IMG/VR virus record: IMGVR_UViG_3300007722_000007
Coordinates: 1 to 64,000 of that record
Strand: one strand, 5' to 3'
Origin: a virus
DNA: 64,000 nt
In this document: in pieces, positions 29,226-64,000 of the stretch
Layout: each line of letters starts with the position of its first letter
How positions within the stretch are numbered: the stretch's first letter is position 1
Notes under the pieces: generated by a model
The model's input: the letters and a program-made list of their open reading frames with translations, nothing else
The model's database searches: none
What the model was told of the DNA's origin: nothing
Translations under genes and position numbers: made by a program

Positions 29226-32200
29226 ATGACTGACACGCTCTCCCCCATTCGCGATTACGAGTACAAGTCGTTAACCGGTCAATTCAATATAGATGAAGCG
29301 CTTGGGATCATTGAATGCTTCGTGGCGGGCATTGGCAATAAGGATTCCGTCGGGGATGTATGCCTTCCGGGCTGTTTTACGAACTCGCTAAAAAGAAGAA
29401 AGCCACGGGTTGTTTGGGGCCACAATTGGAACGAGCCCATTGGGAAGGTCCTTGAAATATACGAGGTCGGCCCAAACGATCCGCGGCTACCGACAAAAAT
29501 GAAAAAGGCCGGCATTGGCGGACTTTATGCAAAGGTCCAATTTAATCTAAAAGCAGAAAAGGGACGCGAGGCATTTGCTAACGTCGGGTTTTTTGGGTTT
29601 GACCAAGAGTGGTCAATCGGCTACAAAACGTTAGATGCGGTATTTGATAGCACCCAGCAGGCCAACCTATTAAAAGAAGTAGAGCTGTACGAAGTCAGCC
29701 CTGTTCTCCATGGGGCGAATCAGTTGACAGGGACGATATCCATCAAGTCTGATGAGCCCGCCGCGGATCCTGCTAATAATTCAGCACTCGCCGGCCCCAA
29801 TGGTGCTGAGATGAAAAACCAAGTAACTGCGATTTACGAAGCGGTTACCAACCCTATTAATACCGTGGTTGGAAGAGCGGCGGATTTAACGCGGGCGCTG
29901 TCTGCGCACTTTGGCGGCCCCGTTCGCCTGGTTAGTGCCGACCACGATATTGCCATCTTTGAAATGGGAGCCGGACAATCTACGGAAACGATGCGGGCCA
30001 CATACCATTACGACGGTGATGAATTCATGTTTGGAACAGCGCAACAGGTGCGACCAGAAACAATTTATATTCCTATTCATTCTTCGCTGGGTAGCAGGGA
30101 AAATGGGGAAACAATCGCGCCCGGCATCACATTGGCGATGCTACCGGCAATCGGCCAAAATATTCTGGATGTGCTGACATTCTCGGCCGATAAAAAGGAT
30201 AGTTGCTGTGATGAGTGCGCTATCCACGGCGGCTCTTGCGGGGATTCAAAATCGGCGATGACCCTGTCCGAGTTCAAATTAGCGAACCCTGGCACCCATG
30301 TAATTATTAGTCCAACCGATCCGGTGGAATCGGCGGATATTTTTGACACAGTTAGAACGGTTAGCGAATATCACGGCTTCTCAATAAAAATTTTGACCGA
30401 GGGGATTGTTGTTCAAAACTACGACACCCTGCAACCAGATGCCATAACCGCAATCACGACCGTACTCAGCGGCATTGAGGCAAAGGGGCTACGACCAAGT
30501 CTCAATAGACGGCGTACAAACATGAACCCGATGACGGCCCGCAACGCCGACAATGATGAATTTGTCTTAGAGGGAATCCCGACAATTAATAGGGGTCGCG
30601 GGGTTATCGATCCAACGCCGGGGAGCGATGCAAATGTCCCCAATTTGAACCGAAATCGTCGCGGGGCCGAAATGATGCCATCGGTGCCACAGCCGCGCGA
30701 GGTCCCCGAAGAAATTCCTGAAGTTGCGCCAGCGATACCGCGTAGGAAGCCAGACGAAGAACCCGAAAAAGTTCCAGAAAAAGTTCCAGAAAAAGAACCT
30801 CAAAAGGAACCAGGGCGTCCACCACCGATAACCGTTCCACCAGAACGCGAACCATGGAAGACCCCGCCGCGCCCCGTGCCAAAACCGGAACCAGCGCCGA
30901 CGCCGCCACCAAGACCAGTAACGCCTCCGATTCCAGAGCGACCAAGGGTCCCAGATGCACCACCAGTGCCAGTACGGCCACTAGTCCCTGTCGGCCGGGC
31001 AAGCACGGCTAATCCGAGCGGGAGCATGAGCTCTTCTCTTGAGAGCATAGACACCGAGATGGATGCCATTAACCGACGATTAGCTACCGCCTCGCTAACT
31101 AACACCTTTGAAAATACGAACCGTTCAGCTCCGGAATTGATCCGGGACAGACGAAGACTACAGCAGCTGATCCAGCAGCGGTACGCAATTGAGCGGAGTA
31201 GAGGAAACGATGCAAGCTCATTCACTGGGGAAAAACTGCCGGACGCTGTTTCCGCGCGCGGAAACATTGGCGGCTCTAGGCAGGCCCAAGCGGAATTGGC
31301 GAGAAATATATACCTAGCTCGCCAGCACGGTGGGATGTCTCTCGATCAAGCATCACACGAATTTGGAAAAACCAGAGAAGAAATTAGACAGTTGGAAGTA
31401 CGCCACATAAGCTCGCTGCGGAATCTCGGCGAAACTCATCCAAATAGATTGTCGCGCAGAGCGCTGGACAATCCGTCCATCCCGCTTTCTAGCGATTCTA
31501 TCGATTTGTTGAAGCGCAGACTTGATGGGGAGACACTCGACGAAGCAGCACAGAGACTTGGGACTGACAGATATTCCGTTCGTAGATCAGAACAACTAGC
31601 CTTATCAAAATTGCGAAATTTTTTAGAATTAAATGACGATATAGATCTGCCAGTCGGAATGCAATTAGCAATTGACGCGCTGGCAATGGCGGAGGACGTC
31701 AGCGATTTAAAAGACGATAACGCCAATCAGGATTTAACGGATGCGGTACCCGATGTTGTATCGGGGAATTTTGGTACCGATGCCCCAACTGGGTCGATGG
31801 CGTCAATCTTGCGGATGTCATCAGATAATGACAATGAGCGGAGCGGGCCAGACGAAAAATTAAATAGACGCCTTTACGACAAATACGGCGATGACTCGAT
31901 TGATAAACTTGCAAAAGATAACGATCTTTCCAAGAATGAAACTATTGCGCGAATTCGTGGCCATGCAATAAATCTCTCAGCATCCGAGAGCCCGCGACGC
32001 GCCGAGATGCGCTCCCTTGTAAATAGACACCGGGATTCTGTAACGGAATCCGATAGAAGAATATTAAAATTACGCCTCAACGGCGCATCCCTGGTCGACA
32101 CAGCCGACGAAACCGGTTTATCGCGGGAGGAAGTACGGCAACGAGAACAAAAGGCTATTTCTAAGCTTAGGAAACTATCTGGGTTGGCGGATGATCAGCC

Positions 32201-35200
32201 AACGGTGATCCGGTCGACATTCGGAGCCGACGAAAATGGACCTTATATTGTTCAAGCACTGTCGGACGGAACGGAATCAACCCGCACAATCGGGCCAACG
32301 GAATTTGACAAACAGTTTAATTATGCATCCGCAACATCTTCCTTTGATGAATTCGCACGAATATTAGAGGATGATAATTTCAACAGCAGTCCAAGCGGAT
32401 CAATGAAATTCGGCACCAAAAAACACAGGGCCGGCGACTCGGTGGCAACTCTTAATAAAGACGGAGAATACGAGAACTACGACATACAAATTGATAGAAC
32501 GAATCCGGATAAACCGTTTATTCGCGCTCGGCGCGCGTCGTATCCGGAAATTGGACAAAAACCAATTCATGAATTAATTGGCGAGCGTATGCCAAACGGT
32601 CCAGAATTTGATGACGGTCAGAACACTTACTGGACACGCCACCAGGATCATCACGCATTTGTTTCGTCGGCAGAAGCTGATATTCTGGAAATCGCATCAA
32701 AAACAGGACCAATAAAATTTAAGGACGGCATAATCTCCGGTCATTATGTCGACGGTAATGGAAAGGAAATTAATTTCTCGATTACGCCGTCTCTTACTAC
32801 AGGTCGGGATAGCGGCCGGAATCTTGTTTTATTTAATTCCAGCGAAAGCGAATTCGGTATTCAGTTCCACAACGCCGGGAAGGTTGAAAACGTCGTCCCC
32901 AATGTCATTGAAGTGGCGATGTCCGATAAGGAAAAATTGGACGCACTTCTCCAGACCGGTACTGGAAAAAGGCTGGCTACGGCCGGGCGCGGATTAACTC
33001 ATCAATGGTGGAAGCAATCAACATGGCAATTCCGTTATGGAGGTAAAGACAGTGCCTCAAAGACCATCACAAAAGATCCACAGACGGATATTATTGCCCC
33101 AGACGCCGATGACCTAATAGCCAAAGCCGACAGGCTCGGTGTTTTTAACCCAGCCGTGGACATGGGCATTGATCCAAAATCGGATCAGGGCAAAAAACTT
33201 ACCGTTGTCACAAGCATCGCGAACCGATACAGCATGAGTGGGACATTATCAGAAAAACAGTGGGCCTATTTACGAAGCCTACTTAAAGGTTTTGATGACA
33301 GCGGTGTTGCGCCAAGTCGGCAGGGCGCAACAGATATCCCAATCCTCAGGGTTGACGGACCGGAAAACCTACCAGGGCCATCGGACGTGTCGCCAGAAGC
33401 CCCCGAGGACGACACATGGGCGGAGAAACTGGCAAAAGTGGATTCCGTTGATCTTTCCGATATGACGCGTAGTCATGTAGATATGGACACCGGCGAAATA
33501 ACGCGTTATGCAACGGTAAATATCGGTGATACCAGTCGCCAGTCAAACCGGTATGTTGTCGCGGACGAAAACGGCGTTCTTCGTAAATGGAATCATCCAC
33601 GCGGCGCAGATCAGCAGGGCTGGGAAAGAGGCGGAGGATTACATTGGCCGGCAAATGAGGTCGGTGATGAATACGATGAACTGGTAGAGCGTGTTAACTT
33701 CCAGCGCGGTCGGGTTCCAAACGAAGAAGCCGTGATGATAAGTAGTAAGCCGTGGGTAGAGGAAGCAAGATTGCGCAGGGCGTCCGGTGAAGATATAGAT
33801 GCCGAAGATGTTGAAGCTGAATATCGGGAGCTTGGACTTTACGGGATGGACATGACGCGACCGGACGGATGGGATGAAAGCGATACCCATATTACGATAG
33901 GCAGAAATAATACCACCGAGAGCATTGTTGATGCCGTGAGCGCCCATATTAAAACCGGAAAACCGTTGCAATTTGGCTACAATAAAAACGACGGCACACC
34001 AACGACGACGAGAGTTCTGCGTTCGGCGCGGATGGGGAAAAATCCGCATACCGGAGTCCACTATGTCATTGGCGGAGACGGCATAGACGAAAAAAATTAC
34101 CGAGTAGATCGGATAGTCGGCTACGATAAAAATTTAGATAAGAACGCAAGTAAGCCTAAAACTGATCCGCCGAATACGCGATTTAGTGGAGAACGGCAGA
34201 CCGGTGGCGGAAGCGGCGAACGTCGCCCGCGCGATAAGCCAGCCGATTCAGGCGAAGAAGCACGGCGAATACGGGAAGATGAGGCAGACCCCGGCGCCTG
34301 GGGCGACAATGTGGATAATGAAAACGACAGACGATCCAGGGAAAGGGCGCCTCGCGAAGAGAGAGCGCCTCGTGAAGAGAGAGAAGCGCCCAAAAAGGAG
34401 CGCTCCGGAAATACTGCGCCCCGCGAACGGGAAATGATAAGAGTCGGAACACGCGGGGTGATTGGAAAAACTATTGCCATTAGTGGCTCGGTTAATAATA
34501 AGGAAAAAATTGGTCAGTTATTGGATGCGGCTCGTTCTAATAATAGAGTCTCGTTTATGTACGGCAACAAACCGTATACCGTTTCGTTTCTTGATGTCGA
34601 GGCGGGCGCCTCATTATCGGAGTTCTCGGATCTGTGGTTTCTCCACGCTACTGATAGCGACGACAATATACGGAAAAAATTTGATGTCTCTGAGATAAAT
34701 ATGGATAGACCCAATGATCCGGTGGCGTCGGGTAGGGCGATCGGATCAATACTCACCGGCGCAGAGCGAACACCGGGTAGGCGGAATTTTGTCAATATTC
34801 CGCTGGGGGTTATGGTCGCCGACCATAACAGACAGAGGGAACAAGCGCGGATATCGCACAAAAAATCTACCGATTCCACCGACAATTCAATAAGCGGCTC
34901 CATGGACCTCACTCCGACACGAGTCAATAATTATTTTCCTCCGTCATACTGGACACCGAATAAGCATGATGCGAGATACGCAGCAATGCCCCGCGAAGAA
35001 CAAGACCAAGAATTGCAAACGATTATATCCAGACTCCATTCGGATGCCCCCATTGACGCGGCGCAGACCAATGACCTCCTGGATAGATTCGCGGCTATCG
35101 ATCGAGTTATGCGCACGGATGGCAAATCTTACGTCGATGAATTCGGCATAGAAATTGAGAGAGCCCCAAATGGGGAGTATTTGCTTACCGGCAACGTGGA

Positions 35201-37484
35201 TATAAGCGTCTTTGAAATGGCAAATCCGTCGGGTTCAATGGGGCGTTACGCAAGGCCAACTAATTCGTCAGATCGCGCAATGGATGATTCCTATAATGCG
35301 CAAATATACAATGAGCTGAATGATTTAATGTCGTCAACTTCCGATGCGGACGCAATAAGGCAACTTGCTCGTCGCCATGGAACGAGTGAGCATAATATAC
35401 GCAGGCGACTCAATGTGGTCGACAGGGAACGCGCACGTGAAATTTCCGCCCTTGACAGGGTCGGCGATATTCAGGATGATATCGATCGTGGGGATATATT
35501 ATTTGACGACCTAGAAATGACCCTTGATTTAAGCTCATCGGATTTTGACACAGTTAGGAATATCGACTACGTATTAGGCGAGCTCGATCTCAGATACAGC
35601 AGTAATAGCCCCAGCGGGAGCATGGCATTGCGACGCGGCGAGGACCTGTCAAGCAAAACAACGGACGAACTGCGAGAGTTATTTAATGAATCAATTGAAC
35701 AACTCTTTGGATCCGAGAGGCCTCATCCCAAGGATAACGCAACAAGATCAAGGTTTTTGCGGGACATTGAAAATATCGGGTCAGAAATTCAATCTAGATT
35801 CTTGGCCAGTCCAGAAGCCGTAGCAATTAGAAATAATATTAACGGGGATGACCCAAGCGGGAGCATGTCCCTGCATCCAAGTGGAGGTCAACCCAAAATA
35901 CCATTAAGCGGTAGCCGCCTAATCGATAGACGGCTTCAAAATGTGTACGGTCCAGATGATTGGGAATCTGTCGCTTTGCAAATAGGCGCAAGATTCACCA
36001 ACATGGAAAATAGGGACTGGGAAAACCCATCCATGGATGACCTGATGGATCTTCACCACCTACTAGACATGAGGGCCAGTGAAACAATCATAGTCGACGG
36101 CCTCCCGGAGGTTTTTGATGGATTTACCTATGATGTCCTTTCTATCGCCGGCGACCTAGATATAACGCCAGAGAATGTTGTTGGTTATGCGTCGCGGGGT
36201 CGCGATTTGGCCGAAATCAAGCAGATGGCCGGGATGTCCCCATTTGAGCGAGCAGAAAAAATGATCCTGATTGATAGGCGTAAGAAATTTGAAAACATGC
36301 TTGATTTGAAAAAACAAGAGCTCGGCGATGGCTACGACAGCTGGCTCGATAGCGCGGTAGAAATAAATAACGGAATTTCATTTGATGAGAACGGCAATCC
36401 GAGAGACCGGGATTACATAGAATCACGCGGTGGGCCGTATGGCGGGTTTTTCGTATCGCCCGAAACCGGCGAGCCGGCCGATTCTAAATTAAAAGACACG
36501 CTCGGAACTTTCCTTGAAGATCTGTATAACGCCCCGTCATATCAGCCCCCCGGCGGTCCTAGCGGGTCAATGGCCTATATCGAGCAACGTTACGACATTA
36601 GGCCGAATCCAGATGGTTCGTGGTCCATAATTGATACGCATAATAATAATTCGCCGACCGGAGAGGCATACGGAAGACGCGAGGATGCGCTAAGTGCGGC
36701 CAGACGCATGGATAGGGGGCCGAGTACGCAACGGGGCAGTTTGCGTGCGAGAAATTCTCCAAACCCACAAGCCACGCCCGATCAGGGGCCGTCACAAAGC
36801 CCGCCGGCGCAGACTCAAGATTTGACCCAAGAACAGCTGTCGTTTGATGACGGCCCATCTGGGTCAATGATGGGGAGATTGCCTGGAAGTAAATGGATTT
36901 CAAATGACCCTCTCCGCCGCCACGGAGAAGAAGTTACGAAGCGCCATGCCGAAATAGCGATACAGAATTATCATCGTGGCCCAGCTTCAATGCCATTCGG
37001 GGGTGCCGAGGATGCGAGTAATGAAATGCTATTCAAGGGGTGGGTGGTGGCGGACTCGTCCCTAGACACCCTTTTAGGAAGACTTGAATATTTGGATAAA
37101 GTCCATACGGGAGGTTTGGATAGGGGCCGCACGGGGGGCCTAGACAGAACCCGTATGGGTATTCCCGGGGAGCCATTTAGCACGCCGGAAATCAGGGAAA
37201 GTTACCCCGATACACCACTGGTGGATATGACTTCCGCCATCGTAACCGAAATTGGGCATGTTCTGGCATATCTTCTCAAACTACAACGAAGGCGTAATTG
37301 GTTCCATATGAACCTAAAACGGAGAATGGAAAAGACCAATAACTACCTTATGGCCGACCAATTTGATTCAATGAATGACAGCCGAAGCGGGATAGGCCGA
37401 GAGGAGAAAGACTCTTTGGTATCGGGTAAATTCCCACGGTATATATTGCCGTCTATCGTCAGCATGGTTGCGCAAAAATCATGA
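29226..37484 (+). CDS. giant prohead protease (HK97/S78 family) polyprotein with sigma70-r4 HTH and WYL modules
   Basis: N-terminal WGHN...WSIGY...YEVSPV..GAN protease; ~2.5k-aa extension with 9 xSGSM-type motifs; AAGGA RBS before ATG 29226. Confidence 0.88.
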   Translation: MTDTLSPIRDYEYKSLTGQFNIDEALGIIECFVAGIGNKDSVGDVCLPGCFTNSLKRRKPRVVWGHNWNEPIGKVLEIYEVGPNDPRLPTKMKKAGIGGLYAKVQFNLKAEKGREAFANVGFFGFDQEWSIGYKTLDAVFDSTQQANLLKEVELYEVSPVLHGANQLTGTISIKSDEPAADPANNSALAGPNGAEMKNQVTAIYEAVTNPINTVVGRAADLTRALSAHFGGPVRLVSADHDIAIFEMGAGQSTETMRATYHYDGDEFMFGTAQQVRPETIYIPIHSSLGSRENGETIAPGITLAMLPAIGQNILDVLTFSADKKDSCCDECAIHGGSCGDSKSAMTLSEFKLANPGTHVIISPTDPVESADIFDTVRTVSEYHGFSIKILTEGIVVQNYDTLQPDAITAITTVLSGIEAKGLRPSLNRRRTNMNPMTARNADNDEFVLEGIPTINRGRGVIDPTPGSDANVPNLNRNRRGAEMMPSVPQPREVPEEIPEVAPAIPRRKPDEEPEKVPEKVPEKEPQKEPGRPPPITVPPEREPWKTPPRPVPKPEPAPTPPPRPVTPPIPERPRVPDAPPVPVRPLVPVGRASTANPSGSMSSSLESIDTEMDAINRRLATASLTNTFENTNRSAPELIRDRRRLQQLIQQRYAIERSRGNDASSFTGEKLPDAVSARGNIGGSRQAQAELARNIYLARQHGGMSLDQASHEFGKTREEIRQLEVRHISSLRNLGETHPNRLSRRALDNPSIPLSSDSIDLLKRRLDGETLDEAAQRLGTDRYSVRRSEQLALSKLRNFLELNDDIDLPVGMQLAIDALAMAEDVSDLKDDNANQDLTDAVPDVVSGNFGTDAPTGSMASILRMSSDNDNERSGPDEKLNRRLYDKYGDDSIDKLAKDNDLSKNETIARIRGHAINLSASESPRRAEMRSLVNRHRDSVTESDRRILKLRLNGASLVDTADETGLSREEVRQREQKAISKLRKLSGLADDQPTVIRSTFGADENGPYIVQALSDGTESTRTIGPTEFDKQFNYASATSSFDEFARILEDDNFNSSPSGSMKFGTKKHRAGDSVATLNKDGEYENYDIQIDRTNPDKPFIRARRASYPEIGQKPIHELIGERMPNGPEFDDGQNTYWTRHQDHHAFVSSAEADILEIASKTGPIKFKDGIISGHYVDGNGKEINFSITPSLTTGRDSGRNLVLFNSSESEFGIQFHNAGKVENVVPNVIEVAMSDKEKLDALLQTGTGKRLATAGRGLTHQWWKQSTWQFRYGGKDSASKTITKDPQTDIIAPDADDLIAKADRLGVFNPAVDMGIDPKSDQGKKLTVVTSIANRYSMSGTLSEKQWAYLRSLLKGFDDSGVAPSRQGATDIPILRVDGPENLPGPSDVSPEAPEDDTWAEKLAKVDSVDLSDMTRSHVDMDTGEITRYATVNIGDTSRQSNRYVVADENGVLRKWNHPRGADQQGWERGGGLHWPANEVGDEYDELVERVNFQRGRVPNEEAVMISSKPWVEEARLRRASGEDIDAEDVEAEYRELGLYGMDMTRPDGWDESDTHITIGRNNTTESIVDAVSAHIKTGKPLQFGYNKNDGTPTTTRVLRSARMGKNPHTGVHYVIGGDGIDEKNYRVDRIVGYDKNLDKNASKPKTDPPNTRFSGERQTGGGSGERRPRDKPADSGEEARRIREDEADPGAWGDNVDNENDRRSRERAPREERAPREEREAPKKERSGNTAPREREMIRVGTRGVIGKTIAISGSVNNKEKIGQLLDAARSNNRVSFMYGNKPYTVSFLDVEAGASLSEFSDLWFLHATDSDDNIRKKFDVSEINMDRPNDPVASGRAIGSILTGAERTPGRRNFVNIPLGVMVADHNRQREQARISHKKSTDSTDNSISGSMDLTPTRVNNYFPPSYWTPNKHDARYAAMPREEQDQELQTIISRLHSDAPIDAAQTNDLLDRFAAIDRVMRTDGKSYVDEFGIEIERAPNGEYLLTGNVDISVFEMANPSGSMGRYARPTNSSDRAMDDSYNAQIYNELNDLMSSTSDADAIRQLARRHGTSEHNIRRRLNVVDRERAREISALDRVGDIQDDIDRGDILFDDLEMTLDLSSSDFDTVRNIDYVLGELDLRYSSNSPSGSMALRRGEDLSSKTTDELRELFNESIEQLFGSERPHPKDNATRSRFLRDIENIGSEIQSRFLASPEAVAIRNNINGDDPSGSMSLHPSGGQPKIPLSGSRLIDRRLQNVYGPDDWESVALQIGARFTNMENRDWENPSMDDLMDLHHLLDMRASETIIVDGLPEVFDGFTYDVLSIAGDLDITPENVVGYASRGRDLAEIKQMAGMSPFERAEKMILIDRRKKFENMLDLKKQELGDGYDSWLDSAVEINNGISFDENGNPRDRDYIESRGGPYGGFFVSPETGEPADSKLKDTLGTFLEDLYNAPSYQPPGGPSGSMAYIEQRYDIRPNPDGSWSIIDTHNNNSPTGEAYGRREDALSAARRMDRGPSTQRGSLRARNSPNPQATPDQGPSQSPPAQTQDLTQEQLSFDDGPSGSMMGRLPGSKWISNDPLRRHGEEVTKRHAEIAIQNYHRGPASMPFGGAEDASNEMLFKGWVVADSSLDTLLGRLEYLDKVHTGGLDRGRTGGLDRTRMGIPGEPFSTPEIRESYPDTPLVDMTSAIVTEIGHVLAYLLKLQRRRNWFHMNLKRRMEKTNNYLMADQFDSMNDSRSGIGREEKDSLVSGKFPRYILPSIVSMVAQKS
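30522..30620 (+). repeat. 33-aa shared motif, copy 1
   Basis: MNPMTARNADNDEFVLEGIPTINRGRGVIDPTP. Confidence 0.95.
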
Positions 37485-37619: not shown

Positions 37620-39443
37620 ATGACCAGCGATAGCGATCACACCCCAAAAGGCGCTGTTATGGGTTATGCTAAACCTGCACAACAAAACGGAGGTAAAGCG
37701 AAATACAACTGCATGGTAACTGGAGAGAAAAAACAGTTTCCCTGCGGCGGTTGCTCCAATCCGAAAGGTTGTCTTTCAACAACCATGCAGTTCAAGGAGC
37801 AAACAATGGCAACGGACGAAAAGTCAGTCGTAAAAATCGGTGCAGACGGTGACTTAATTGAATGTGCAAAAGGATTAGACGTAAGTGAGTGTGGTTACGT
37901 TAAGGGTCAGTTAGCTTGTGGAAAATGTGGTGCTGTTGCGGTGTCAGTGAAAGTAGACGTAGTTGAGGAAGATGAAGCGCTTGAAATAGCCGAGGATGAT
38001 GAAATTATGAAAAATACGCCAGATAACGCAACACAAACTCCTACGCGTAAGCGCGGCTCACGCATTGCCCTTGAGGAAAAGGCGGCAGTGCGCGCATACG
38101 GAGATACTCTTACCGAAGAGGACGAAGCTCTTCTTGCCGAAGAAGAGAAGAAGAAGCAAAAGCTAAGAGATCTGGCCACCGAAGCCGAAGATGCGGCCGA
38201 AGCCGAAGATGCGGCCGAAGCCGAAGGTGTTGCTGAGACCGAAGGTGTTGCTGAAATCGCCGATGTGGCGTTGCCGGATCCGGCAACAGACACCGCCGAC
38301 ATAACTGGCGACGTGGCAGACGAGGCCTACGAGACCAGCCGCATACCGGCTGAAGAGGAACCGCAAATGGATGAAATTCTTGCGATGCGTTCGGCGCCAA
38401 GAAGAAAGAAGCCGGCCGCTCCAGTTGCGCCGGAAGCAGAAGATGACGCACTGGTTGACGAAACCGACGACGAAGTCCCTGGCAGACAAATAATGGAGCA
38501 AAGAAGACTCCGATCAATGGGATACAAATCGGGAGAGTTTGGTGCCGATGCCTTCGTGTGTTCACTGGAGCGCAAGGTCTACTCAAGCGGCGCTGGTGTT
38601 TGTGAAGGTTGCCCAGGCGGTTGCGTAAAAGAAGGATCAATGCCTGCGCTTTTGGAGATTGAAGGTCGCGCCGAAGACATGTTCAGCGGCAAGGTTCTTG
38701 ATTCCGGATACTCGGACATCGCGGATATCTTTGTTGTTGATGTTGAGCGCAAGGACGGGAAACCAATTGAGGCCTTCTTTGACGGCTCAACGGGCGAGGT
38801 TCTTGGTTGGCATATGCTAAATCAGGAAGTTCTTGAAGTCAAATCCGGATTCCAGCCAACCGAATTGATTAGTTTTTCGGAAGCGGCGTCTATTGCAACC
38901 AAGAGCATTCAGGGTGATGTCATGGCGGTTGAGGCCGATATCTTTGAGGGCTTTGATGCGTACGCCGTTGAGATAGAGGGCATTGATGGAAAATCATACG
39001 ATGTGTTCGTGTCTCTTGACGGCGATGTGCTTGGCTATGATGAGTACACCCAAGAAGAGGCTTCGTCTATTGAGGCCGAAGCCGCAGAGATAGCCCTTAA
39101 GCGTGCCTATTCAGACGAGCAACGCGCAGGACACGCATCCAAGGGGAATGCACTTCCGGATGGCTCTTTCCCAATTGTTGATGAAACCGATCTCCGTAAT
39201 GCAATTACGGCCCATGGTCGCGCCAAGAACGCAGACGTTGCGAAACTGCACATCATGGAGCGCGCCATGTCCCTCAAGCTCGAGAATTTAATTCCCGAGA
39301 ACTGGATTGACGAAGAAACAAAAAAGAAGTTTGCCTCTTCGGGGAAATCAGGAGAAGACAACTTCCTATCAACGCTTCTTGAATTTGAAATGCTCGCCCA
39401 GGAAGCCGATAATTCTTCAAGTATTTACAACGAGTCAGAATAG
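37620..39443 (+). CDS. acidic head-module protein: Cys clusters, two PepSY-like domains, C-terminal ALPDGSFPI (DUF6582-like) domain
   Basis: CxxC clusters; FFDGSTGEVLG and ISFSEAASIA...DVFVSLDGDVLG; ALPDGSFPI..DLRNAI.AHGR. Confidence 0.7.
   Translation: MTSDSDHTPKGAVMGYAKPAQQNGGKAKYNCMVTGEKKQFPCGGCSNPKGCLSTTMQFKEQTMATDEKSVVKIGADGDLIECAKGLDVSECGYVKGQLACGKCGAVAVSVKVDVVEEDEALEIAEDDEIMKNTPDNATQTPTRKRGSRIALEEKAAVRAYGDTLTEEDEALLAEEEKKKQKLRDLATEAEDAAEAEDAAEAEGVAETEGVAEIADVALPDPATDTADITGDVADEAYETSRIPAEEEPQMDEILAMRSAPRRKKPAAPVAPEAEDDALVDETDDEVPGRQIMEQRRLRSMGYKSGEFGADAFVCSLERKVYSSGAGVCEGCPGGCVKEGSMPALLEIEGRAEDMFSGKVLDSGYSDIADIFVVDVERKDGKPIEAFFDGSTGEVLGWHMLNQEVLEVKSGFQPTELISFSEAASIATKSIQGDVMAVEADIFEGFDAYAVEIEGIDGKSYDVFVSLDGDVLGYDEYTQEEASSIEAEAAEIALKRAYSDEQRAGHASKGNALPDGSFPIVDETDLRNAITAHGRAKNADVAKLHIMERAMSLKLENLIPENWIDEETKKKFASSGKSGEDNFLSTLLEFEMLAQEADNSSSIYNESE
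38181..38255 (+). repeat. 18-bp tandem coding repeat (EAEDAA/EGVA)
   Basis: GAAGCCGAAGATGCGGCC x2 plus two degenerate units. Confidence 0.8.
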
Positions 39444-43231: not shown

Positions 43232-43329
43232 CCGAATAATACCCATCGGCACCCTGTTCCAATTGTCATACGGTATTCCTATGCTAATTTGTTATCGGGT
43301 CTATAATTGGATCACGCAGAGATGCAGTG

Positions 43330-48961: not shown

Positions 48962-49611
48962 CAAGCGAACAAGGGCCATTGGGCGGATTTATGGCCATTA
49001 ACATACATGAACAGCCGAACGCCGAAGCCAGCAACGGAGTTCTAGATATCCTTGATGCGATGGGGGACTATGTCTCAACCGAGAGCAAGGTCGCTATTGA
49101 CGCCATTCCCCAGGAACGCGTTACCGGTGATGTTCTCCGCGGATACGGACCACGACGAGGGAATTTAGAGAGATTGCTCAGGTACTGGCGACCAATAATG
49201 AAGAAGCCGGGTGGTTTCCGTAGATGCCGGGTGATACTGGCCGACCATCCAGAACTATATCCACTGGATAACATCTGTGCCTGGCTACACCACGAAACAA
49301 CCGGATTATGGCCAAACGAGGGATGCCATCACCCAGGGATGAAAAATTGTCGCAAGAAACTGAAGGGAGCGGTGCGGGGTTCAATTTGGAACGATAGCGA
49401 ATTTGACGACAGGATAAAAAAGATTACATCCCGTTCCGGGCGAAAAAGTGCTCAGGCGGGATTTGCAGGGACGGATGATCCATTTGTCCCGGTTTTGACC
49501 GAAGCCGACTGGGGCCACGCCATTAAGGTCCTTCAAGATTTTTCTGAAATGGAACCAGATTTTGTAAATTACGTTTGTGATGACAATAATTGGGAGCTCG
49601 AGTTTGAGTAA
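48958..49611 (+). CDS. head-module protein with Cys/His motif
   Basis: GNLERLLRYW...GGFRRC...CAWLHHETTGLWP resembles motifs in phage head-associated proteins. Confidence 0.65.
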   Translation: MTSEQGPLGGFMAINIHEQPNAEASNGVLDILDAMGDYVSTESKVAIDAIPQERVTGDVLRGYGPRRGNLERLLRYWRPIMKKPGGFRRCRVILADHPELYPLDNICAWLHHETTGLWPNEGCHHPGMKNCRKKLKGAVRGSIWNDSEFDDRIKKITSRSGRKSAQAGFAGTDDPFVPVLTEADWGHAIKVLQDFSEMEPDFVNYVCDDNNWELEFE

Positions 49612-56126: not shown

Positions 56127-56552
56127 ATGGATACGCAATCAATTGCTGAACTTTTCAAAAAAGCAACGCTCCGCGCAGAGGCTTTATCAGACGACGATAC
56201 GGCCGTACTCGACAATGCCACAAATGAAATTAAGGAAGATTATTACGCCTATGACAATCTGGCCAAATATCCGCCATTCTCCTATAGAGCGCTGGGTGTA
56301 GGGCGACGCTACAGGGAGTTGCTCTTAGGCGAATTGGCTGCTTTCACACGCGGGATAAAGGAATATGATTCATTTGCCGCCATAGACGCCGAATACGAAA
56401 TAGATATAGAGGAAGCCAATTCGTACCGTAAATTATACGACACCCCAGAGGCGGCGGCGATGAGCTATATGCGCCATATCGGCATTAAGCCATCAAAACA
56501 GGAACTTCAAGGATTCACAATTTGGGTCGGCGACGCAGAGATACCGCGATGA
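56127..56552 (+). CDS. small acidic hypothetical protein
   Basis: 141 aa, starts 9 nt after the upstream stop; ATGA-coupled to the next gene. Confidence 0.7.
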   Translation: MDTQSIAELFKKATLRAEALSDDDTAVLDNATNEIKEDYYAYDNLAKYPPFSYRALGVGRRYRELLLGELAAFTRGIKEYDSFAAIDAEYEIDIEEANSYRKLYDTPEAAAMSYMRHIGIKPSKQELQGFTIWVGDAEIPR

Positions 56553-57091
56553 ATGACGGGAATCAAAAAAGACAGGCGTTAAAAATCGCCAGGTATATGG
56601 GGTGCTCCGGCGTCCACAAGGGCAACAAGGGTGAGTGGATGCCGTGCGCCGATCATGATACCCTACAGAGACTTTCGCAAGCCGCGGAGAGCGACTCATG
56701 GCTGAAAAAACAATCGGCAAAATCTGGGCAGTACGGTACCGCCGGAACCGTCCAAAAACGTAGTGCGAAAGGGGGAGGACGTAGCCCAACATCCGAAAAT
56801 CAAATTGGCAAAATAGGGGGAACCAGGAAATATTTGGCCATAAAAAGAAATAAGCCAATTGTGCTCCCCCGATCGGCGATAATTCAACGTCTTGGCAGTT
56901 TGGACAACGGTTCCCCACGAAGATCAAAACGCAAGGCGCGGGGTGCCAAATGGGAGCGTTTAACCGAACGCGGGGTAATTGGCTTGTCGTCCCTGGACGG
57001 CGGCGGAATAGTTTCCGCGAGTGCACTTTCAAAAATGTTTAGCGTTTCTGACGGCAAAAGAAAATACTTAAATCAATTCCCCACAGCGTAA
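56549..57091 (+). CDS. basic hypothetical protein with GCxGxH...WMPC motif
   Basis: ATGA overlap start; motif shared with the next ORF. Confidence 0.7.
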   Translation: MNDGNQKRQALKIARYMGCSGVHKGNKGEWMPCADHDTLQRLSQAAESDSWLKKQSAKSGQYGTAGTVQKRSAKGGGRSPTSENQIGKIGGTRKYLAIKRNKPIVLPRSAIIQRLGSLDNGSPRRSKRKARGAKWERLTERGVIGLSSLDGGGIVSASALSKMFSVSDGKRKYLNQFPTA

Positions 57092-57168: not shown

Positions 57169-60100
57169 ATGGCCGAAAATACAGACACTGGTGACTGCTG
57201 TCCCATCGCCCCAGATGATGGCGCCGACCAGATAAATCAAAAATCAGTAGGATTCGGGCCTCGCCGAGTTCGGTCCGACGGCCACGATGTCTTTGTCGAT
57301 AAAGAGTCCGCCCGGGAAAGATCTCGCCAGCTCGGCTGCATCGGGATTCGTCAGTATAATTCTGTTTCTGGGGGATTTGTTTGGATGCCGTGCTCTAATG
57401 AATCAGATTACCGACGGGTAACCGGAGTGGGAGTTTTAGCCGGACGAAGATCAGAGCGGGATTTGTCTAGACGTATTGCCAGAATACTAAAGAAAAAAAC
57501 CGACGAAGTTAAGGCACTTGGTCCACCGATCGGCGGACCTCAACGGGATATGAATCCAGCTACGGCGCGAAATGCCGATAATGACCCATTTGTCCTAGAG
57601 GGAATTCCAACGATAAATAGGGGTCGCGGCGTTATCGACCCGACCCCCGGCTCGGACGTCGCCATCCCCGCTCCGTCAACGCCTGACGCGCCAGAATTAA
57701 GCGATACCGCTAATCGAGCAAGCGATATTGATGGCCCCGATCTACCGACACGCCCAGATCCGGGCGCTGCCCCTAGTGATAAACCGTCCATAGCGCGTTC
57801 TCCTAAAAAGCCATCAACGCGCCGAGCGTCAATCGCTCCGACAGACTCCCTGGCTCCCAAAATTGACACCGAACCCAGAAGGAACACAGCTAGAGATACT
57901 GTACCTGCCGCTACGGGAGCAATGCGTGGCGACAAGGTCACTCCGGCTAGATTCATATTACCGGAGAATGACGAACTTGTTCGTCGCGTAAAAGGCGCAA
58001 TTGCCAAATGGCTTGATGGAACCCCGGAGCGCGAACGCAGTAATTTGCTTCAGCGGAATGACAGAAGTGGGCGCAACAATTTCTTCGCCCAGATGTACCA
58101 AGACGACGCCGCGCGGTCGACGCTGCGGAGTTTCATATGGGGTGATATAGAAACCGCAGATGCGGCGGTTGCCTATTGGGGTGGCCAATTTGCGGATTCG
58201 GCAGACCGCGTCATCACCAAAATCGATACCGGGACGCTTAACGAGGCCGACTACGTGGATGCTTTTAGGTTATACCAAAAAGCCGTCTCTCAGGCGCCTG
58301 ATTTTTCACGGGGGATCATGGACACGTACGCAGTGGCTGATCCCGGAATTGACGAAGAAGTTTTATTTTCCAACCTGTCCGGATGGACGCTGCCAACAAC
58401 GATTGAAAGCATGACCCCGAATACCACTCCACTTCAGTCATTTGGGGCTCAGGGGATTATAGCGATAACGGATATTTTTAGGGCGGCGGTTAGCCAATTA
58501 AAGTTTCCCGTGCAACGCGAAAATGCGCAAACCTTTCCGGAGGGGAATAAACTTCGTGCCGGTTTTACCGCAAACCGCGCCGTCTACCCGCATGACTATG
58601 GAAATGTCTTATTGCGACGCCTGCTCGATGTATCAAATTCCGTCCGTAACGCTAATAGCGAGCCAATACGCGAAACCATCCTTGGGTCGGCCCTGAATTC
58701 ATTCGCAATGTATGTCGCGGCGCATGGCGTTCTGGTCCATGATTCAGATTTAATGGATAGCTCATTTGGAATAATGAACAATCTTCTTGAACAGTTACTA
58801 GCTGACAAAGAATCAACTGCCGTACTAGCAAAAATGGGACAATTATTTGATTTGCTAGATACGCATCTTGTTGATTATACCGAAGCTAGAAGAAGAGCGC
58901 GCTTAGAAATAATTGCCGCTGCGAAAGAAAATGGATTATTGAGGAAAAGTGAGGACTTATTTGATAACGATGTGCCGCTTGCTGTCGCAGAGCATCTTGA
59001 CAACTCAAAACAAGCATTTTCTACAAGAAATGAGCATGTCGCCGCGGTTATAGCGCCGATTGGCGAAGATAAGTTGCGAAGAGTAATGCGGGACATTTTC
59101 GCGCGCAACAATTATTTAGACGGGAGCACGATAGAGAAATATTCCCCAGCTTCTCCCGGTGACGCCATAGCTCTCGCTTCCGAATTAAATCCCCCGCAAA
59201 GGGACAGGAATATTACCAGGCTCAGCACGGAAAACGCAAAAGCATTTGAATCTATTACCTCATATCTCTATTCTGATAATCCAATATTTTTGGTCGACAA
59301 CAACGACCAAATCCAACTATGGGCAAATTTATTGCAATACGGCAAACGCCGAATGTTACACCGCACCCTGAAACAAATGAGCCCCAAAAAACGCGCTGAG
59401 TTTATGGCCGTAGACCCTGAGACGGCCGATGTCCTTCTTGACTCGGCCAAGGAATCATGGCTATCCCACAGACAGATCAACGAGGGGTTCGGCCCCGACA
59501 ATTATCCGCTTGATGACAATATCAACGCCACGCTGACAAACTATCCGATCGAGGATGTTCATTACAGAATCCCGCAGCGCATTACGGATAGCTCCTCTAA
59601 TCCGCTTGTCCTGATAGCTAACGCCCTGCGCCTTCGCCAGTATCAGCTGGACCGAGTCAACAATAACGATTATACAAATTCCATACGAGCCTTAATCGAC
59701 GGCCTTCTCGGTGGCAATCCAAAACAATCAAACAAAATTTTTGATTTAATGATTCTGCCATCGCCCGCCGCGCTTTTAATTGACCGCTACGCGAATAGCA
59801 TCCCCAACTTTTTACACACGCTGGGAGAATATGATAACGACATTCAGGGCAACAATCGTGGTCAATTTAGAAATAATGATTCGGTATACCCCAATACAAT
59901 GACGGCCCTTGGGGTTTTGGGGGACGCAAAACACGCACTTGCCGGGCTTGCCGGGAACATGGATGAATATGCCAATATGGCGTCACGGCGAATGGTGCTT
60001 ATTACGGACGATTTAATTGATCGAGAAAATTACGACATTGATCCACTGGTTGAAAACTACCTAAACGCCGCCCCTTTTGGGTACGGTCCGAGTGGATCCA

Positions 60101-63100
60101 TGGTCGGGCATATCGGCCAAAACTATCCCCGTGACAAAAGGGAATCTGGATCCTGGAGCCCTGTGGCCGACAATATTAGGACGGAGATCGCGCGGGGGTA
60201 TCAATTCCCGAAAAAAAGAAATGGATCCATGCGGATATCCCTGGGCTCGCGATACCGACAGGCGGAGCTTGTCCGGGAGGCGGCAGAACTACTAGACACG
60301 ATGTACGAACGGGCGAGAAACGGAACGCTTAGATTGGAAGATTATGCGACATCGTATGATCAAAAAACCGAAAAATTAAAACTGGATGCCTTTAATCCCA
60401 AGACGCCAGCGTCCGTACTCAAAGGAGAAATGAGCCTATTCAGGGCCATCACCCTGGTGATGACCGCCGCATCAGTTGGTGCCCGCACGCCAAAAGATAG
60501 AGATTTAATCGACGGCTTGACGCAGGAAGTTTATCAATGGGCCGACCACTTCCTCCCGTTCTATTCATCAAAACGGCCCTTTGTTGGGAGTCTTCCACGG
60601 AAAATTTCGTCAACGGACCCGACCGGCTCAATGGGCGGCATACGAAGTCCCAGAGAAAGATTTGCTAAGTTAAAAAATAGCAAATACGCCAGTCTTGAAT
60701 TGCGCTGGGCCGCATTTGATGCCGCGGCAAGTGATCTAATTTACGAATCCGCCGCATCGGTACCGATATCCAATAAGCTACTGCAACTTGAAACCCTTCT
60801 TGACGACCTAATTAACGAGCAGTGGGCGCAGGCCAGCGGGCTCAAAACCGCACTTGAAATAATTTCAAGCCATGTCGACGACATGATCCAGGGCGGTCTT
60901 CCATTGCGCTTAACTGCGGAACTTACTAGATCATTTGATACCTTCGCCGGCCGCATGCGAAAAAAATACCAAGACGACCCGCTCCTAGCTTCTGCGTTTT
61001 CCAGTGTGAATCTATACTCGGTACGGAGCCGTAGTAAGCGTCGCAGGGGACTTAAGCCGATAGAGCTACTTAATGAGCGCCTAACAATGCAGAATAGCCT
61101 ATTGGATGATGCAATTACAAATAACCAGACCGCACGGGCCGAAAACTTGCGGGTGGCGATTAGCGTAACCGTCCGTAACATCAACGAAGTAACGCCTCCT
61201 CCCCGGGGGGCGCCGAAGAAGTTTGAATGGGAGGGCGACGATGAAACCCCCGTTTCTGGCTCCATGGCCGGTCGTTATTCACCACATCAGCTAACACTGT
61301 CCAATTTGGTCACGGGGTTACATGATTCGCCAGAGTTTGCCAAACATTGGCAAAGCATGGATGACAATAATGAATTATTTTGGAAGTATCGGTTGGAGTC
61401 GCAGCAGGAACCGGCAGGGCTTTCTAGTATTACGTTCAACTGGACCGACGAAGTGTCCAGAAACGCATATTTACGATTACTCACATCGGGCAAACAGTTT
61501 CCGCCGATATATCGCACTCCCGGCGGAAGAGATGGGGCTATTTTCCCGAAATCATCGTTACATAAAAATTCAGAGATGGCAAAAAATATAAGTGAGTATA
61601 TTGCCGATGAACTCGGAGTCGGAATGTACATACGGGGGAGGTATCCATATTATGCTGACATGTTTAGCACCCTGGCTACATTTTCGCTTACTCCGTCTAG
61701 CGGTGTTGCTGGATCAAAGGCCGTAAGCGATATTCTGTCGTATCACTCCGAGGAACTGAATCCAACCCAGTTTGCATACAGGTTTGAAACCTGGATTCGG
61801 GATCCAGATATGGTTATGGAGAATGCAAAAACCGGCAAGGAAACCGGCGTGCGGAAATTTTTCAATAACGACCGCATCAAAATGATGATGGAATTCAACA
61901 AACGAATTGATGGGCTTTACGACATCATAGAAGAAAAGGCTCCGCAACAAACGTTTGATAATTTCAGACCGCGAAGAATCCCCGGGCGGTACGACGGGGA
62001 TATTTCGTCGTCATTAAAAACAACGGCATTGCAAACAATACTTTCAGCGAATTTAGAAACTGACTCCGAAACGGTACATTCATTAACAAAACGAGTGAAC
62101 GCGCAATTGAACCGATGGAATAATTTTGATTTCGCAACAGCCGAAGATATTGTTAATATTTTGGCGGCAACCGAACCGAGCCTCTGGAATAAAATCAAAA
62201 TCGACCTAGACGCACCGGTTAATCCGCTGAGCGGAATACCCATAGAAGAACTCGATGCGAATAAAGATATTTTGTCGATCATTATGGACGACTATAAGAA
62301 TTTGTCATTTTATGAAATAAAAGAACTATTAGCACAGGGATCCCACGCTGATCTCTATGATGATGAAGCCATTCGCGCGTTGCTTTCGGAAATGGGCGTA
62401 ACGGACCTTCAGGTTAGAGATACCGCAAACCCGTCTGGGTCAATGACACAGGGTGCGGGAAACGACGAGAGTTCAAATATTGACTGGTGGAAGATCCCCG
62501 ATCCGGAAAAAATGGCGCTACTACGGCAAGACTTTGATCGGCTACATATTCTTAGGGCCAATAAGAAGGCACTTGAAATGTCGCCCGATGAAGAGCGCCA
62601 ATTCAGGGTAACGCAATGGAAAAAATCTCAATTAGAGAAAATAATTGACGCCGACTGGGTCGCGCTCGGCCCATTCCCGAAAACAAATGCCCTAAGGGAT
62701 TTACATAACCTTGCGCTGGAGGCCACCGATTCAGATGTAACCTTTTCGGGTAAAATTTATGGTTTTACCGATAGTCAAATATCCACAATATTTGATGAAA
62801 TATCGTCTGGGCTCCCAAACTCGACCGATATTAAGCGACGTGGGGAATTTGTCGACCATATCAATGGTCGGCTATCCGTTCGTGGAGATGACGCACCAGC
62901 CATAGTGCCGGACATTTGGGCCCCGGAACCAACGCGGAATGAATTACTTGAGTTTACAACCCCCAAAGAGGCAGCCGAAATTCTCGGTGAAAATTTTGAC
63001 TTTGACCGTGCGTTTTTGGCACAACTTTTGAACGGCCCATCATCGGAAATGTCGCCCGAAATTAGGACGGAATTACTTCGGATAACCAATGATCGTGCCG

Positions 63101-64000
63101 ACGGCGACGCTGATCCGGCCGCTGTCCAGTACGCTCCAACTCCGCAACAGCAAATGCAAAATTTCCTGATTAATAGTATAGACGAATCCGTTAATTCAGC
63201 CGAGGATTTTGTCGACAGTTTGTCACGGGAACAATTGTCTGTTATTTCCGATCACGTAAGCTCTGGGCAGGGGCAACCTCGGACATTAAGTAGAGAGGAT
63301 AACGAAGCCGAACGGACAGAGCAATTCAGACAGCAGTCCGCTTTGGGTATTTCGCATTATTCCGCTACCCAAACTGGTAGAAACCAATTACGCACGATCG
63401 CATCTTTGATGAAGGAAAATACAAAAGTTCAGCTCGCCGATGATGTAATTGATAAAATCATTTTAAGTGCAAGCCAAGATGAGATCTCCTTTGACGCCGC
63501 GCTTCGGGCGTTATTCCCAATTGATAACTATAACGATATGGGTGCAATATGGTTCCATGTAGTCAAACCGCTAACGGGTGTAGATAGCGACATCGCACGC
63601 GAACTGCAAGATGTTGCAAATGAGTCGACAGCACGAATGCGACGACACGCGTTCGTTTTGGCAATTCACGGGAATAAAGCCAAAAATGAACTTCGGCACA
63701 CGCTCTATAATTTTGTCAAGAAGTACCCCGTTGACGGCGTCGGATCGGTTCGTATTGCTGGGTCAAACGAGACCACCAATGACATTGCCGATCTTTCGGC
63801 GGATGACCAAAATATAATTCGCTCGATTCAATTTGACACAATCAGTTCATACGATGGTACGACAGAATCCGCAAATCGGATAATAGGCGCGTTGACGTCT
63901 CAACAAATTGAACGACTATTTGAGAAATTCATTCTGCCGGCGCTTCATAAAAGTAATCCCGGCCTGGCCAATAAAAGGTCCATCAACCAAGCCAGAATAA
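57169..64000 (+). CDS. giant multi-module protein, >2277 aa, truncated by the window end
   Basis: ATG GCC GAA AAT at 57169; no stop seen in this frame and no terminated ORF in the track; carries the WMPC motif, 33-aa tag and four xSGSM motifs. Confidence 0.88.
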   Translation, partial: MAENTDTGDCCPIAPDDGADQINQKSVGFGPRRVRSDGHDVFVDKESARERSRQLGCIGIRQYNSVSGGFVWMPCSNESDYRRVTGVGVLAGRRSERDLSRRIARILKKKTDEVKALGPPIGGPQRDMNPATARNADNDPFVLEGIPTINRGRGVIDPTPGSDVAIPAPSTPDAPELSDTANRASDIDGPDLPTRPDPGAAPSDKPSIARSPKKPSTRRASIAPTDSLAPKIDTEPRRNTARDTVPAATGAMRGDKVTPARFILPENDELVRRVKGAIAKWLDGTPERERSNLLQRNDRSGRNNFFAQMYQDDAARSTLRSFIWGDIETADAAVAYWGGQFADSADRVITKIDTGTLNEADYVDAFRLYQKAVSQAPDFSRGIMDTYAVADPGIDEEVLFSNLSGWTLPTTIESMTPNTTPLQSFGAQGIIAITDIFRAAVSQLKFPVQRENAQTFPEGNKLRAGFTANRAVYPHDYGNVLLRRLLDVSNSVRNANSEPIRETILGSALNSFAMYVAAHGVLVHDSDLMDSSFGIMNNLLEQLLADKESTAVLAKMGQLFDLLDTHLVDYTEARRRARLEIIAAAKENGLLRKSEDLFDNDVPLAVAEHLDNSKQAFSTRNEHVAAVIAPIGEDKLRRVMRDIFARNNYLDGSTIEKYSPASPGDAIALASELNPPQRDRNITRLSTENAKAFESITSYLYSDNPIFLVDNNDQIQLWANLLQYGKRRMLHRTLKQMSPKKRAEFMAVDPETADVLLDSAKESWLSHRQINEGFGPDNYPLDDNINATLTNYPIEDVHYRIPQRITDSSSNPLVLIANALRLRQYQLDRVNNNDYTNSIRALIDGLLGGNPKQSNKIFDLMILPSPAALLIDRYANSIPNFLHTLGEYDNDIQGNNRGQFRNNDSVYPNTMTALGVLGDAKHALAGLAGNMDEYANMASRRMVLITDDLIDRENYDIDPLVENYLNAAPFGYGPSGSMVGHIGQNYPRDKRESGSWSPVADNIRTEIARGYQFPKKRNGSMRISLGSRYRQAELVREAAELLDTMYERARNGTLRLEDYATSYDQKTEKLKLDAFNPKTPASVLKGEMSLFRAITLVMTAASVGARTPKDRDLIDGLTQEVYQWADHFLPFYSSKRPFVGSLPRKISSTDPTGSMGGIRSPRERFAKLKNSKYASLELRWAAFDAAASDLIYESAASVPISNKLLQLETLLDDLINEQWAQASGLKTALEIISSHVDDMIQGGLPLRLTAELTRSFDTFAGRMRKKYQDDPLLASAFSSVNLYSVRSRSKRRRGLKPIELLNERLTMQNSLLDDAITNNQTARAENLRVAISVTVRNINEVTPPPRGAPKKFEWEGDDETPVSGSMAGRYSPHQLTLSNLVTGLHDSPEFAKHWQSMDDNNELFWKYRLESQQEPAGLSSITFNWTDEVSRNAYLRLLTSGKQFPPIYRTPGGRDGAIFPKSSLHKNSEMAKNISEYIADELGVGMYIRGRYPYYADMFSTLATFSLTPSSGVAGSKAVSDILSYHSEELNPTQFAYRFETWIRDPDMVMENAKTGKETGVRKFFNNDRIKMMMEFNKRIDGLYDIIEEKAPQQTFDNFRPRRIPGRYDGDISSSLKTTALQTILSANLETDSETVHSLTKRVNAQLNRWNNFDFATAEDIVNILAATEPSLWNKIKIDLDAPVNPLSGIPIEELDANKDILSIIMDDYKNLSFYEIKELLAQGSHADLYDDEAIRALLSEMGVTDLQVRDTANPSGSMTQGAGNDESSNIDWWKIPDPEKMALLRQDFDRLHILRANKKALEMSPDEERQFRVTQWKKSQLEKIIDADWVALGPFPKTNALRDLHNLALEATDSDVTFSGKIYGFTDSQISTIFDEISSGLPNSTDIKRRGEFVDHINGRLSVRGDDAPAIVPDIWAPEPTRNELLEFTTPKEAAEILGENFDFDRAFLAQLLNGPSSEMSPEIRTELLRITNDRADGDADPAAVQYAPTPQQQMQNFLINSIDESVNSAEDFVDSLSREQLSVISDHVSSGQGQPRTLSREDNEAERTEQFRQQSALGISHYSATQTGRNQLRTIASLMKENTKVQLADDVIDKIILSASQDEISFDAALRALFPIDNYNDMGAIWFHVVKPLTGVDSDIARELQDVANESTARMRRHAFVLAIHGNKAKNELRHTLYNFVKKYPVDGVGSVRIAGSNETTNDIADLSADDQNIIRSIQFDTISSYDGTTESANRIIGALTSQQIERLFEKFILPALHKSNPGLANKRSINQARI
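57550..57648 (+). repeat. 33-aa shared motif, copy 3
   Basis: MNPATARNADNDPFVLEGIPTINRGRGVIDPTP. Confidence 0.95.

Follow-up and report, generated by a model that had tools for sequence, protein, structure and literature searches.

What is the role of a five-residue peptide that recurs, with little change, along four giant proteins encoded among the head genes of a tailed phage? The question is raised by IMG/VR record IMGVR_UViG_3300007722_000007, a 74,450-bp contig of an uncultured lake-type myophage, of which the first 64 kb (positions 1 to 64,000, referred to as the window) form the stretch analysed here. The region is the head module of a myophage; genes for a tail sheath, a baseplate wedge, a terminase and a portal are present, the sheath and wedge genes being on the minus strand. 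Between the gene for the portal-MuF protein (start at 26923) and that for the major capsid protein (start at contig position 73822), i.e. among the head genes, lie four giant open reading frames (ORFs) encoding proteins of 2758, 1257, 1748 and 5437 aa, here termed polyproteins 1 to 4, which carry the peptide P-S-G-S-M and its variants and contain about 28 modules in total. On balance it appears probable that P-S-G-S-M is a proteolytic junction signal of a system of head-cargo polyproteins, with the S78 prohead protease that begins polyprotein 1 as the most likely cutter.

Copies of the junction motif in four giant proteins

A six-frame scan of the window for x[ST]GSM placed every copy of the motif in one of four plus-strand ORFs, at 29208-37484, 39458-43231, 43327-48573 and from 57169 onwards. 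An earlier note on this DNA had listed 17 copies of [P/V/I]-[S/T]-G-S-M, all of which were recovered at the positions it gave; the count of 17 holds for the window, and the full total is 24, as the fourth ORF carries a further seven copies beyond the window. Polyprotein 1 (29208-37484, +; 2758 aa) has the S78 prohead protease at its N-terminus followed by nine junction motifs, which divide it into ten segments. The first motif, PSGSM, is located at 31014-31028 (+), and the other eight, each 15 nt long and on the same strand, start at 31785, 32391, 34890, 35226, 35610, 35853, 36558 and 36855. The segment lengths previously reported for this ORF (257, 202, 833, 112, 128, 81, 235 and 99 aa) were reproduced, except for the last segment, which is 204 aa rather than approximately 209 aa. 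Polyprotein 2 (39458-43231, +; 1257 aa) has the motifs PTGSM (39680) and VSGSM (40661), and polyprotein 3 (43327-48573, +; 1748 aa) has motifs starting at 44278 and 46444, together with two HExxH motifs (45328 and 47455). In polyprotein 4 (57169-64000 in the window, ending at contig position 73482, +; 5437 aa), motifs start at 60088, 60619, 61252 and 62431, with the seven further copies downstream of the window. Both degenerate forms described in the note are also present: ATGAM at 57910 in polyprotein 4, and PTGNM at 48683, which forms residues 41-45 of a separate 132-aa ORF (48563-48961, +) that may represent a short leader followed by a cut site.

The number of copies is far from what chance would give. 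The four giants contain 24 copies in 11,200 aa, where 0.035 copies are expected from composition, and 2000 shuffles gave a mean of 0.042 copies and a maximum of 2; the claim that well below one copy would arise by chance is thus upheld (~0.04 expected). No copy was found in the remaining ORFs of the contig (12,033 aa), which comprise the tail, recombination, terminase and portal ORFs, from which the motif had been said to be missing, as well as the 607-, 703- and 1481-aa ORFs of the head region. Within the motif, Ser precedes Met at 24 of 24 sites. The upstream flank is acidic or polar, with no basic residue at positions -8 to -5, Lys and Arg are enriched at +3 to +5, and hydrophobic residues are depleted.

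Codons differ between copies of the motif, so selection acts on the peptide, as had been proposed: third codon positions carry 0.2-0.6 bits, and both the AGY and the TCN families of Ser codons are used at both Ser positions. A codon-level comparison of the copies found no conserved purine tract in the motif DNA. These results bear directly on an explanation in which the motif Met is an internal translation start or the motif acts at the DNA level, for example in recombination or in ribosome binding. A Met followed by a small residue does resemble a natural N-terminus, and the GGGAGC that precedes ATG at some sites resembles a ribosome-binding site; however, synonymous positions are free, the upstream P-x-G is conserved as protein, and relatives replace the Met codon by ATA, CTT or GTA, which are not start codons. 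Internal translation starts were rejected on the basis of the free synonymous sites, the lack of a conserved ribosome-binding site and these replacement codons, and a DNA-level repeat or recombination site was rejected due to the codon differences between copies; overall, an explanation of this kind is considered extremely improbable.

The motif had also been predicted to fall in linkers between domains, and this was borne out both by a structural model and by domain boundaries. An AlphaFold model of residues 1880-2758 of polyprotein 1, built from an 11-sequence alignment, has a mean predicted local distance difference test score (pLDDT) of 56, and all six sites in the modelled region are in coil that scores below pLDDT 50 and separates helical blocks scoring 70-86. 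Low-confidence coil segments make up 40% of the model, and the chance of all six sites falling there is ~0.004. Each Pfam domain that was identified (S78, Sigma70_r4, Clp_N, NUDIX and Zeta_toxin) is contained in a single inter-motif segment. Sigma-70 region-4 helix-turn-helix domains (HTHs) are located in segments 2 and 3 of polyprotein 1, and the C-terminal modules of polyprotein 4 are Clp_N (in a 173-aa segment), one unknown module, NUDIX (in a 312-aa segment) and Zeta_toxin (in the last segment, 283 aa). Chains of 1257-5437 aa therefore hold several unrelated effector-type domains (Sigma70_r4 three times, Clp_N, NUDIX, Zeta_toxin and the HExxH modules), and most modules have no Pfam match.

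Motif dialects, shared tag and module gain and loss in related phages

At least 228 contigs in IMG/VR carry a related protease, and 80 of these loci were used for the comparisons that follow. The exact pattern x[ST]GSM is almost absent from the 80 loci, giving the first impression that the motif is not conserved in relatives; this impression was overturned by counting of gapped patterns, which revealed P-x-G-x-M dialects. Relatives with giant ORFs use GPVGxM (L014, L033 and L034), VSGKM (L001), DSGAM (L117/G001) or RGARS (L118/G002). The motif described in the earlier note is real, but xSGSM is only one phage's dialect of a wider P/x-x-G-x-M (or RGARS) code.

Alignment of homologues showed that the sites themselves are conserved. 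Polyprotein 1 is homologous over its full length to protease polyproteins of 2200-3800 aa in relatives, with about 35-47% identity, and in an alignment of 11 sequences (27-47% identity) each of its nine sites corresponds to P-x-G-x-[M, rarely I/L/V] in the ten homologues. P2007, G2009, M2011, P2550 and M2554 are invariant and the surrounding linkers are poorly conserved and rich in insertions and deletions; the most distant homologue (27% identity) has P-S-A-G-M in the same register. For polyproteins 2 to 4, all eight sites covered by a homologue align with G-x-M-type sites of G001/L117, mostly DSGAM or DSGSM. Site 75 of polyprotein 2 aligns with DSGLM and NVGAM sites of phage G001, site 1040 of polyprotein 3 aligns with VSGRM of the same phage, and six sites of polyprotein 4 align with DSGAM-type sites in L117/G001. 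Conservation of the motif at the same joints in homologues, on which the earlier note had made its proposal depend, held throughout (nine of nine sites in polyprotein 1 and eight of eight covered sites elsewhere).

Other dialects are used on a similar scale. In the 109-kb contig G001, six giant ORFs, one of them for a 3750-aa protease polyprotein, together contain more than 30 DSGAM-type sites, and G002 has about 19 copies of RGARS in giant ORFs. In L118/L122/L124 (IMG/VR contig 3300020193_000086), the protease domain is 75% identical and the junction peptide is [D/E/N]-R-G-A-R-S-x-S, with Arg replacing Met. The use of one spelling per genome, together with the conservation of positions between genomes, points to a trans-acting reader encoded by each phage. 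A PSGPM peptide that follows the protease domain of the relatives (about residues 246-292) was also considered as a junction and is probably not one, because it lies inside a conserved inserted domain missing from the phage studied and has the same spelling across dialects.

In addition to the motif, three of the giants share a near-identical 32-aa tag, NPxTARNADNDxFVLEGIPTINRGRGVIDPTP, encoded at 30525-30620 (+) in polyprotein 1, 39587-39682 in polyprotein 2 and 57553-57648 in polyprotein 4. The polyprotein 2 copy runs directly into the first motif of that protein, PTGSM (39680). Polyprotein 3 has a related element, DPNARDGDGDG...ERP (46222-46287), just upstream of its second motif, and a DPxAxDGDxDG...ERP version of the tag is present in many relatives, for example in proteins that consist of the tag plus a Zeta toxin and in the stand-alone protease of L001. 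The tag may serve as a procapsid-targeting peptide. The protease of HK97 is directed to the procapsid by its own C-terminal part.

Gain and loss of modules at the motif, a further expectation of the earlier note, was seen in homologues. Relative to the phage studied and L014, both L033 and L034 have two extra modules, each ending in its own GPVGRM, and P0010 has a 100-residue insert between SPRGA|M and SPIGT|M. In L094, an N-terminal region, the tag and a Zeta toxin make up a protein of 627 aa, which matches both ends of polyprotein 4 but lacks the ten modules in between. As individual cases, these sequences support a cassette-like gain and loss of modules at the motif.

Typical relatives have a stand-alone protease protein of 670-730 aa, a scaffold-like acidic protein and then separate, motif-free genes for proteins of 500-1000 aa. 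Judged by portal and protease, the nearest relatives in culture are actinobacterial myophages of the Gordonia Chidieberevirus group; their genes in this position are ordinary and separate, and no recurrent motif was found in them. In Gordonia phage ChisanaKitsune (L120, MZ820089.1, 10744-22410), the interval between portal and protease contains separate genes annotated as RNA ligase, VIP2-like ADP-ribosyltransferase toxin, a 969-aa HNH protein, minor tail proteins and lysin B, and these genes may be the unfused counterpart of the cargo island.

These comparisons are relevant to an explanation in which the motif is never cut, and instead is conserved as a hinge between modules or as a docking peptide, recognised by a partner such as the inner surface of the capsid, a chaperone or the ejection machinery. 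The location of the sites in exposed coil would suit such a role, one dialect per genome is what any trans-acting reader would produce, and not a protease alone, and cleavage is itself a deduction. However, the equivalents of the modules are separate genes in typical relatives, indicating that their function needs no covalent chain, a hinge would not need five fixed residues at 24 sites, and the first module of the system is itself a protease from a family that cuts head proteins at short motifs. An uncut hinge or docking peptide is considered unlikely.

The prohead protease and a candidate processing mechanism

The prohead protease domain corresponds to residues ~1-180 of polyprotein 1 (29208-29750, +). 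Residues 34-177 match Pfam Peptidase_S78 (PF04586) with 41.1 bits against a cut-off of 21, and the domain matches PHROG_80, a head maturation protease, at 4.2e-28. His72 (WGHNW; 29421), Ser136 (EWSIGY; 29613) and His168 (VLHGAN; 29709) are invariant in 23 relatives and are candidate catalytic residues by analogy. Structural re-alignment of an AlphaFold2 model of the protease (pLDDT 60) gave T4 gp21 as the best match (5jbl_B; Z 10.2, root mean square deviation 3.1 Å over 125 residues), with herpesvirus proteases next at Z 5-7.6. Foldseek searches with the same model gave weak E-values of 0.01-0.1, with none at 0.001 or better, and sequence searches of the protease and the HExxH modules against solved structures returned nothing useful. 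Taken together, the sequence matches and the model suggest that the N-terminus of polyprotein 1 is an intact-looking S78 protease with a T4 gp21/assemblin-like fold.

A mechanism that accommodates the motif, the tag and the protease can be proposed. The four giants would be made whole, and, as each carries a copy or variant of the one short tag, would be brought into the assembling procapsid. A phage protease, most likely the S78 module 1 of polyprotein 1, would then cut at or next to each P-S-G-S-M, releasing ~28 module proteins, including the sigma-70 region-4 HTHs, Clp_N, a NUDIX enzyme, a Zeta-toxin-like kinase, the HExxH modules and many modules of unknown fold. Once released, these proteins would remain in the head until they entered the host together with the DNA. 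Candidate scissile bonds are G|S, which gives the register [P/V/I]-x-small|Ser (compare V/L/I-x-A|S in assemblin), S|M, and M|small residue. The cutting, the enzyme, the scissile bond, packaging and injection are all what we infer from sequences and models.

By analogy, the system functions like the processed head proteins of T4 and phiKZ, and is not a member of that group by specificity. The T4 gp21 system uses L/I-x-E sites, with capsid-targeting sequences on internal proteins, and phiKZ gp175 and SPN3US gp245 use S/A/G-x-E sites; SPN3US gp245 cuts after A-x-E at 14 sites in nine substrates (PMC10052503). As in T4, phiKZ and SPN3US, a head-module protease of gp21/assemblin fold would cut many head-resident proteins at one short motif, which here recurs on several head-module proteins (24 copies in four proteins, plus the two degenerate forms), and, as in T4-type systems, a shared peptide may target cargo into the procapsid. 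Unlike the substrates of these phages, which are encoded by separate genes, lose a propeptide and have Glu before the cut, the giants have up to 12 modules sharing a single chain and a single tag, the protease is module 1 of a polyprotein, and the dialect shifts between close relatives. P-S-G-S-M contains no Glu; no conserved Glu was found in the motif, which is not of the x-x-Glu type that is cut after Glu.

The herpesvirus assemblin-scaffold proteins (UL26/UL80) offer a second parallel, having an N-terminal protease of the same fold that is fused to a downstream capsid-interior protein and acts in the procapsid. The register of [P/V/I]-[S/T]-G-S, hydrophobic-x-small|Ser, is shared with the (V/L/I)-x-A|S release and maturation sites of assemblin. 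However, assemblin has two sites and one scaffold product, whereas the giants have 9-12 sites and unrelated modules, and the DSGAM and RGARS dialects do not fit a hydrophobic first position. Cutting of one product at a repeated short motif by a virus-encoded protease is also known from picornavirus-like 3C proteases, African swine fever virus pp220/pp62 and the G-G-x sites of adenovirus, but these involve unrelated proteases and viruses, and their products are replication or core-shell proteins. A literature search found no published description of such a junction code or polyprotein system in tailed phages.

The giants fit the definition of polyvalent proteins as given in the consulted sections of the paper by Iyer, Burroughs, Anand, de Souza and Aravind (2017; PMC5512222), in being giant multi-domain phage proteins with unrelated effector-type domains, encoded beside virion genes, for which packaging and injection are predicted and a processing peptidase is suspected. 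Those sections propose a zincin-like domain as the processing enzyme of polyvalent proteins; they describe no conserved junction peptide and do not use the term 'linker', in contrast to the positionally conserved code of the giants. The present chain also differs in being headed by an S78 prohead protease and in that most of its modules lack a Pfam match.

This proposal has a direct counterpart here, in which the zincin-like HExxH modules of polyprotein 3, or equivalent modules, would cut the sites either inside the head or once injected. The peptidase nature of these modules is suggested by the two HExxH motifs and by weak Atlas leads to zincin-like, M90 and ATLF clusters. The Atlas leads score below 0.9 (0.87 for a zincin-like cluster and 0.83 for an LPD1-bearing cluster), and tag-bearing proteins of relatives carry HExxH modules as well. 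Many zincins favour a large hydrophobic side chain immediately following the cleaved bond. A cut at S|M, and the changes of Met to Ile, Leu or Val in homologues, would match this preference, and autoprocessing by a metallopeptidase domain has already been proposed for polyvalent proteins, in the same sections of PMC5512222. However, no Pfam, PHROG or PDB sequence match to a peptidase fold was found for the HExxH modules, including no Pfam match to zincin-like metallopeptidase or 'large polyvalent protein' domains, the modules themselves follow junction motifs like any other cargo, and the RGARS dialect has no hydrophobic residue at the relevant position. Given the published autoprocessing proposal, cutting by the HExxH modules is a reasonable competing explanation, though it is judged to be unlikely.

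Several observations weigh against cutting by the S78 protease, which remains the preferred explanation. Protease domains are 75-83% identical across phages of different dialects, including those with Met and Arg at the key position, and comparison of these domains identified no convincing specificity-switch residue that tracks the dialect. Motif-free relatives carry the same protease, whose presence is therefore no guide to that of the motif. No clean copy occurs in the major capsid protein, which contains only a loosely similar, conserved [G/S]-[A/V]-N-M-[P/A] near residue 125, and the motif is missing altogether from three large ORFs nearby (607, 703 and 1481 aa). The models are modest (mean pLDDT 56 and 60) and were built from shallow alignments, and the phage is uncultured.

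The near constancy of the phage protease domain between dialects would also be compatible with cutting by a host protease, either after injection or in the cytoplasm before assembly, with the motif mimicking a host recognition site; differing dialects could then follow differing hosts. To our knowledge, however, P-S-G-S-M matches no known bacterial processing signal, and the motif is confined to head-module giants encoded beside the protease gene. A host protease is considered quite improbable as the cutter.

If the joints are cut, as the favoured explanation by the S78 protease holds, the motif would be the first processing code to be defined for the polyvalent or cargo polyproteins of phages, and would bear on how the giants become working parts, a question that has been open since 2017. 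It would also mean that a prohead protease of HK97/gp21 fold is able to operate a real polyprotein strategy in a tailed phage. Exact boundaries of ~28 modules, mostly of unknown fold, follow from the motif, providing a catalogue of candidate host-takeover and anti-defence proteins, and the tag and junction peptide together would offer a straightforward way to load foreign proteins into capsids. A broader and more doubtful possibility is that the head module of this clade of lake myophages has become a programmable cargo loader, in which one tag imports up to 12 unrelated effectors and the prohead protease frees them, the dialect (PSGSM, GPVGxM, VSGKM, DSGAM or RGARS) co-evolves with its reader, modules shuffle as cassettes of module plus junction, and co-infecting relatives may be unable to process each other's cargo. 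In that case, more than half of the phage genome would encode injected proteins.

Genes surrounding the polyproteins

The head module starts with the portal protein, which is fused to a MuF-like domain (26923-29142, +; PHROG portal 2.7e-95, Pfam Phage_portal 1.2e-49 and Phage_Mu_F 5.8e-07). The major capsid gene does not begin until after the fourth giant, and ~44 kb of the 74-kb contig (29208-73482), occupied by the polyprotein region, separates the protease and capsid genes. The major capsid protein (contig 73822-74448, equivalent to L081:17823-18449) and those of L082-L119 have an N-terminal helical region of ~125 residues followed by a conserved [G/S]-[A/V]-N-M-[P/A]-[S/A]-P. This sequence sits at the expected end of the N-terminal assembly domain and, like the junction motif, ends in Met; it may be a maturation site and is treated as a lead only. 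The N-terminal RGKM of the major capsid protein was rejected as a junction motif, as G-x-M is not conserved there.

Immediately downstream of polyprotein 1 is the gene for a conserved, motif-free protein of 607 aa (37620-39443, +), acidic and Cys-rich, which is a scaffold-like candidate and adjoins the protease gene downstream in relatives too. Its N-terminal part is rich in Cys (CAKGLD..ECGY...CGKCGA), its C-terminal half is conserved and a long stretch of it is acidic; Pfam and PHROG searches gave no match. A 217-aa ORF (48958-49611, +) is a homologue of the Cys/His-rich middle domain (CAWLHHETTGLWPNEGCHHPGMKNC) of the stand-alone protease protein of typical relatives, and in the phage studied is a separate gene far from the protease. 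Upstream of polyprotein 4, a 189-aa ORF (56522-57091, +) has a DUF3721-like motif (32.9 bits, above the cut-off); a weaker version is present at the N-terminus of polyprotein 4 itself (57169-57500, +), and the same N-terminal region precedes the tag in many cargo proteins of relatives.

Two further observations were made on the minus strand of the window. The large terminase subunit (24322-26652, -) has a LAGLIDADG-type insert (Pfam LAGLIDADG_3, residues 351-405) that resembles an intein or homing endonuclease. A gene pair at 18215-20163 (-) encodes a PAPS-reductase-like protein (PHROG_2302, 1.1e-72) and a ParB-like nuclease/partition protein (PHROG_723, 4e-39).

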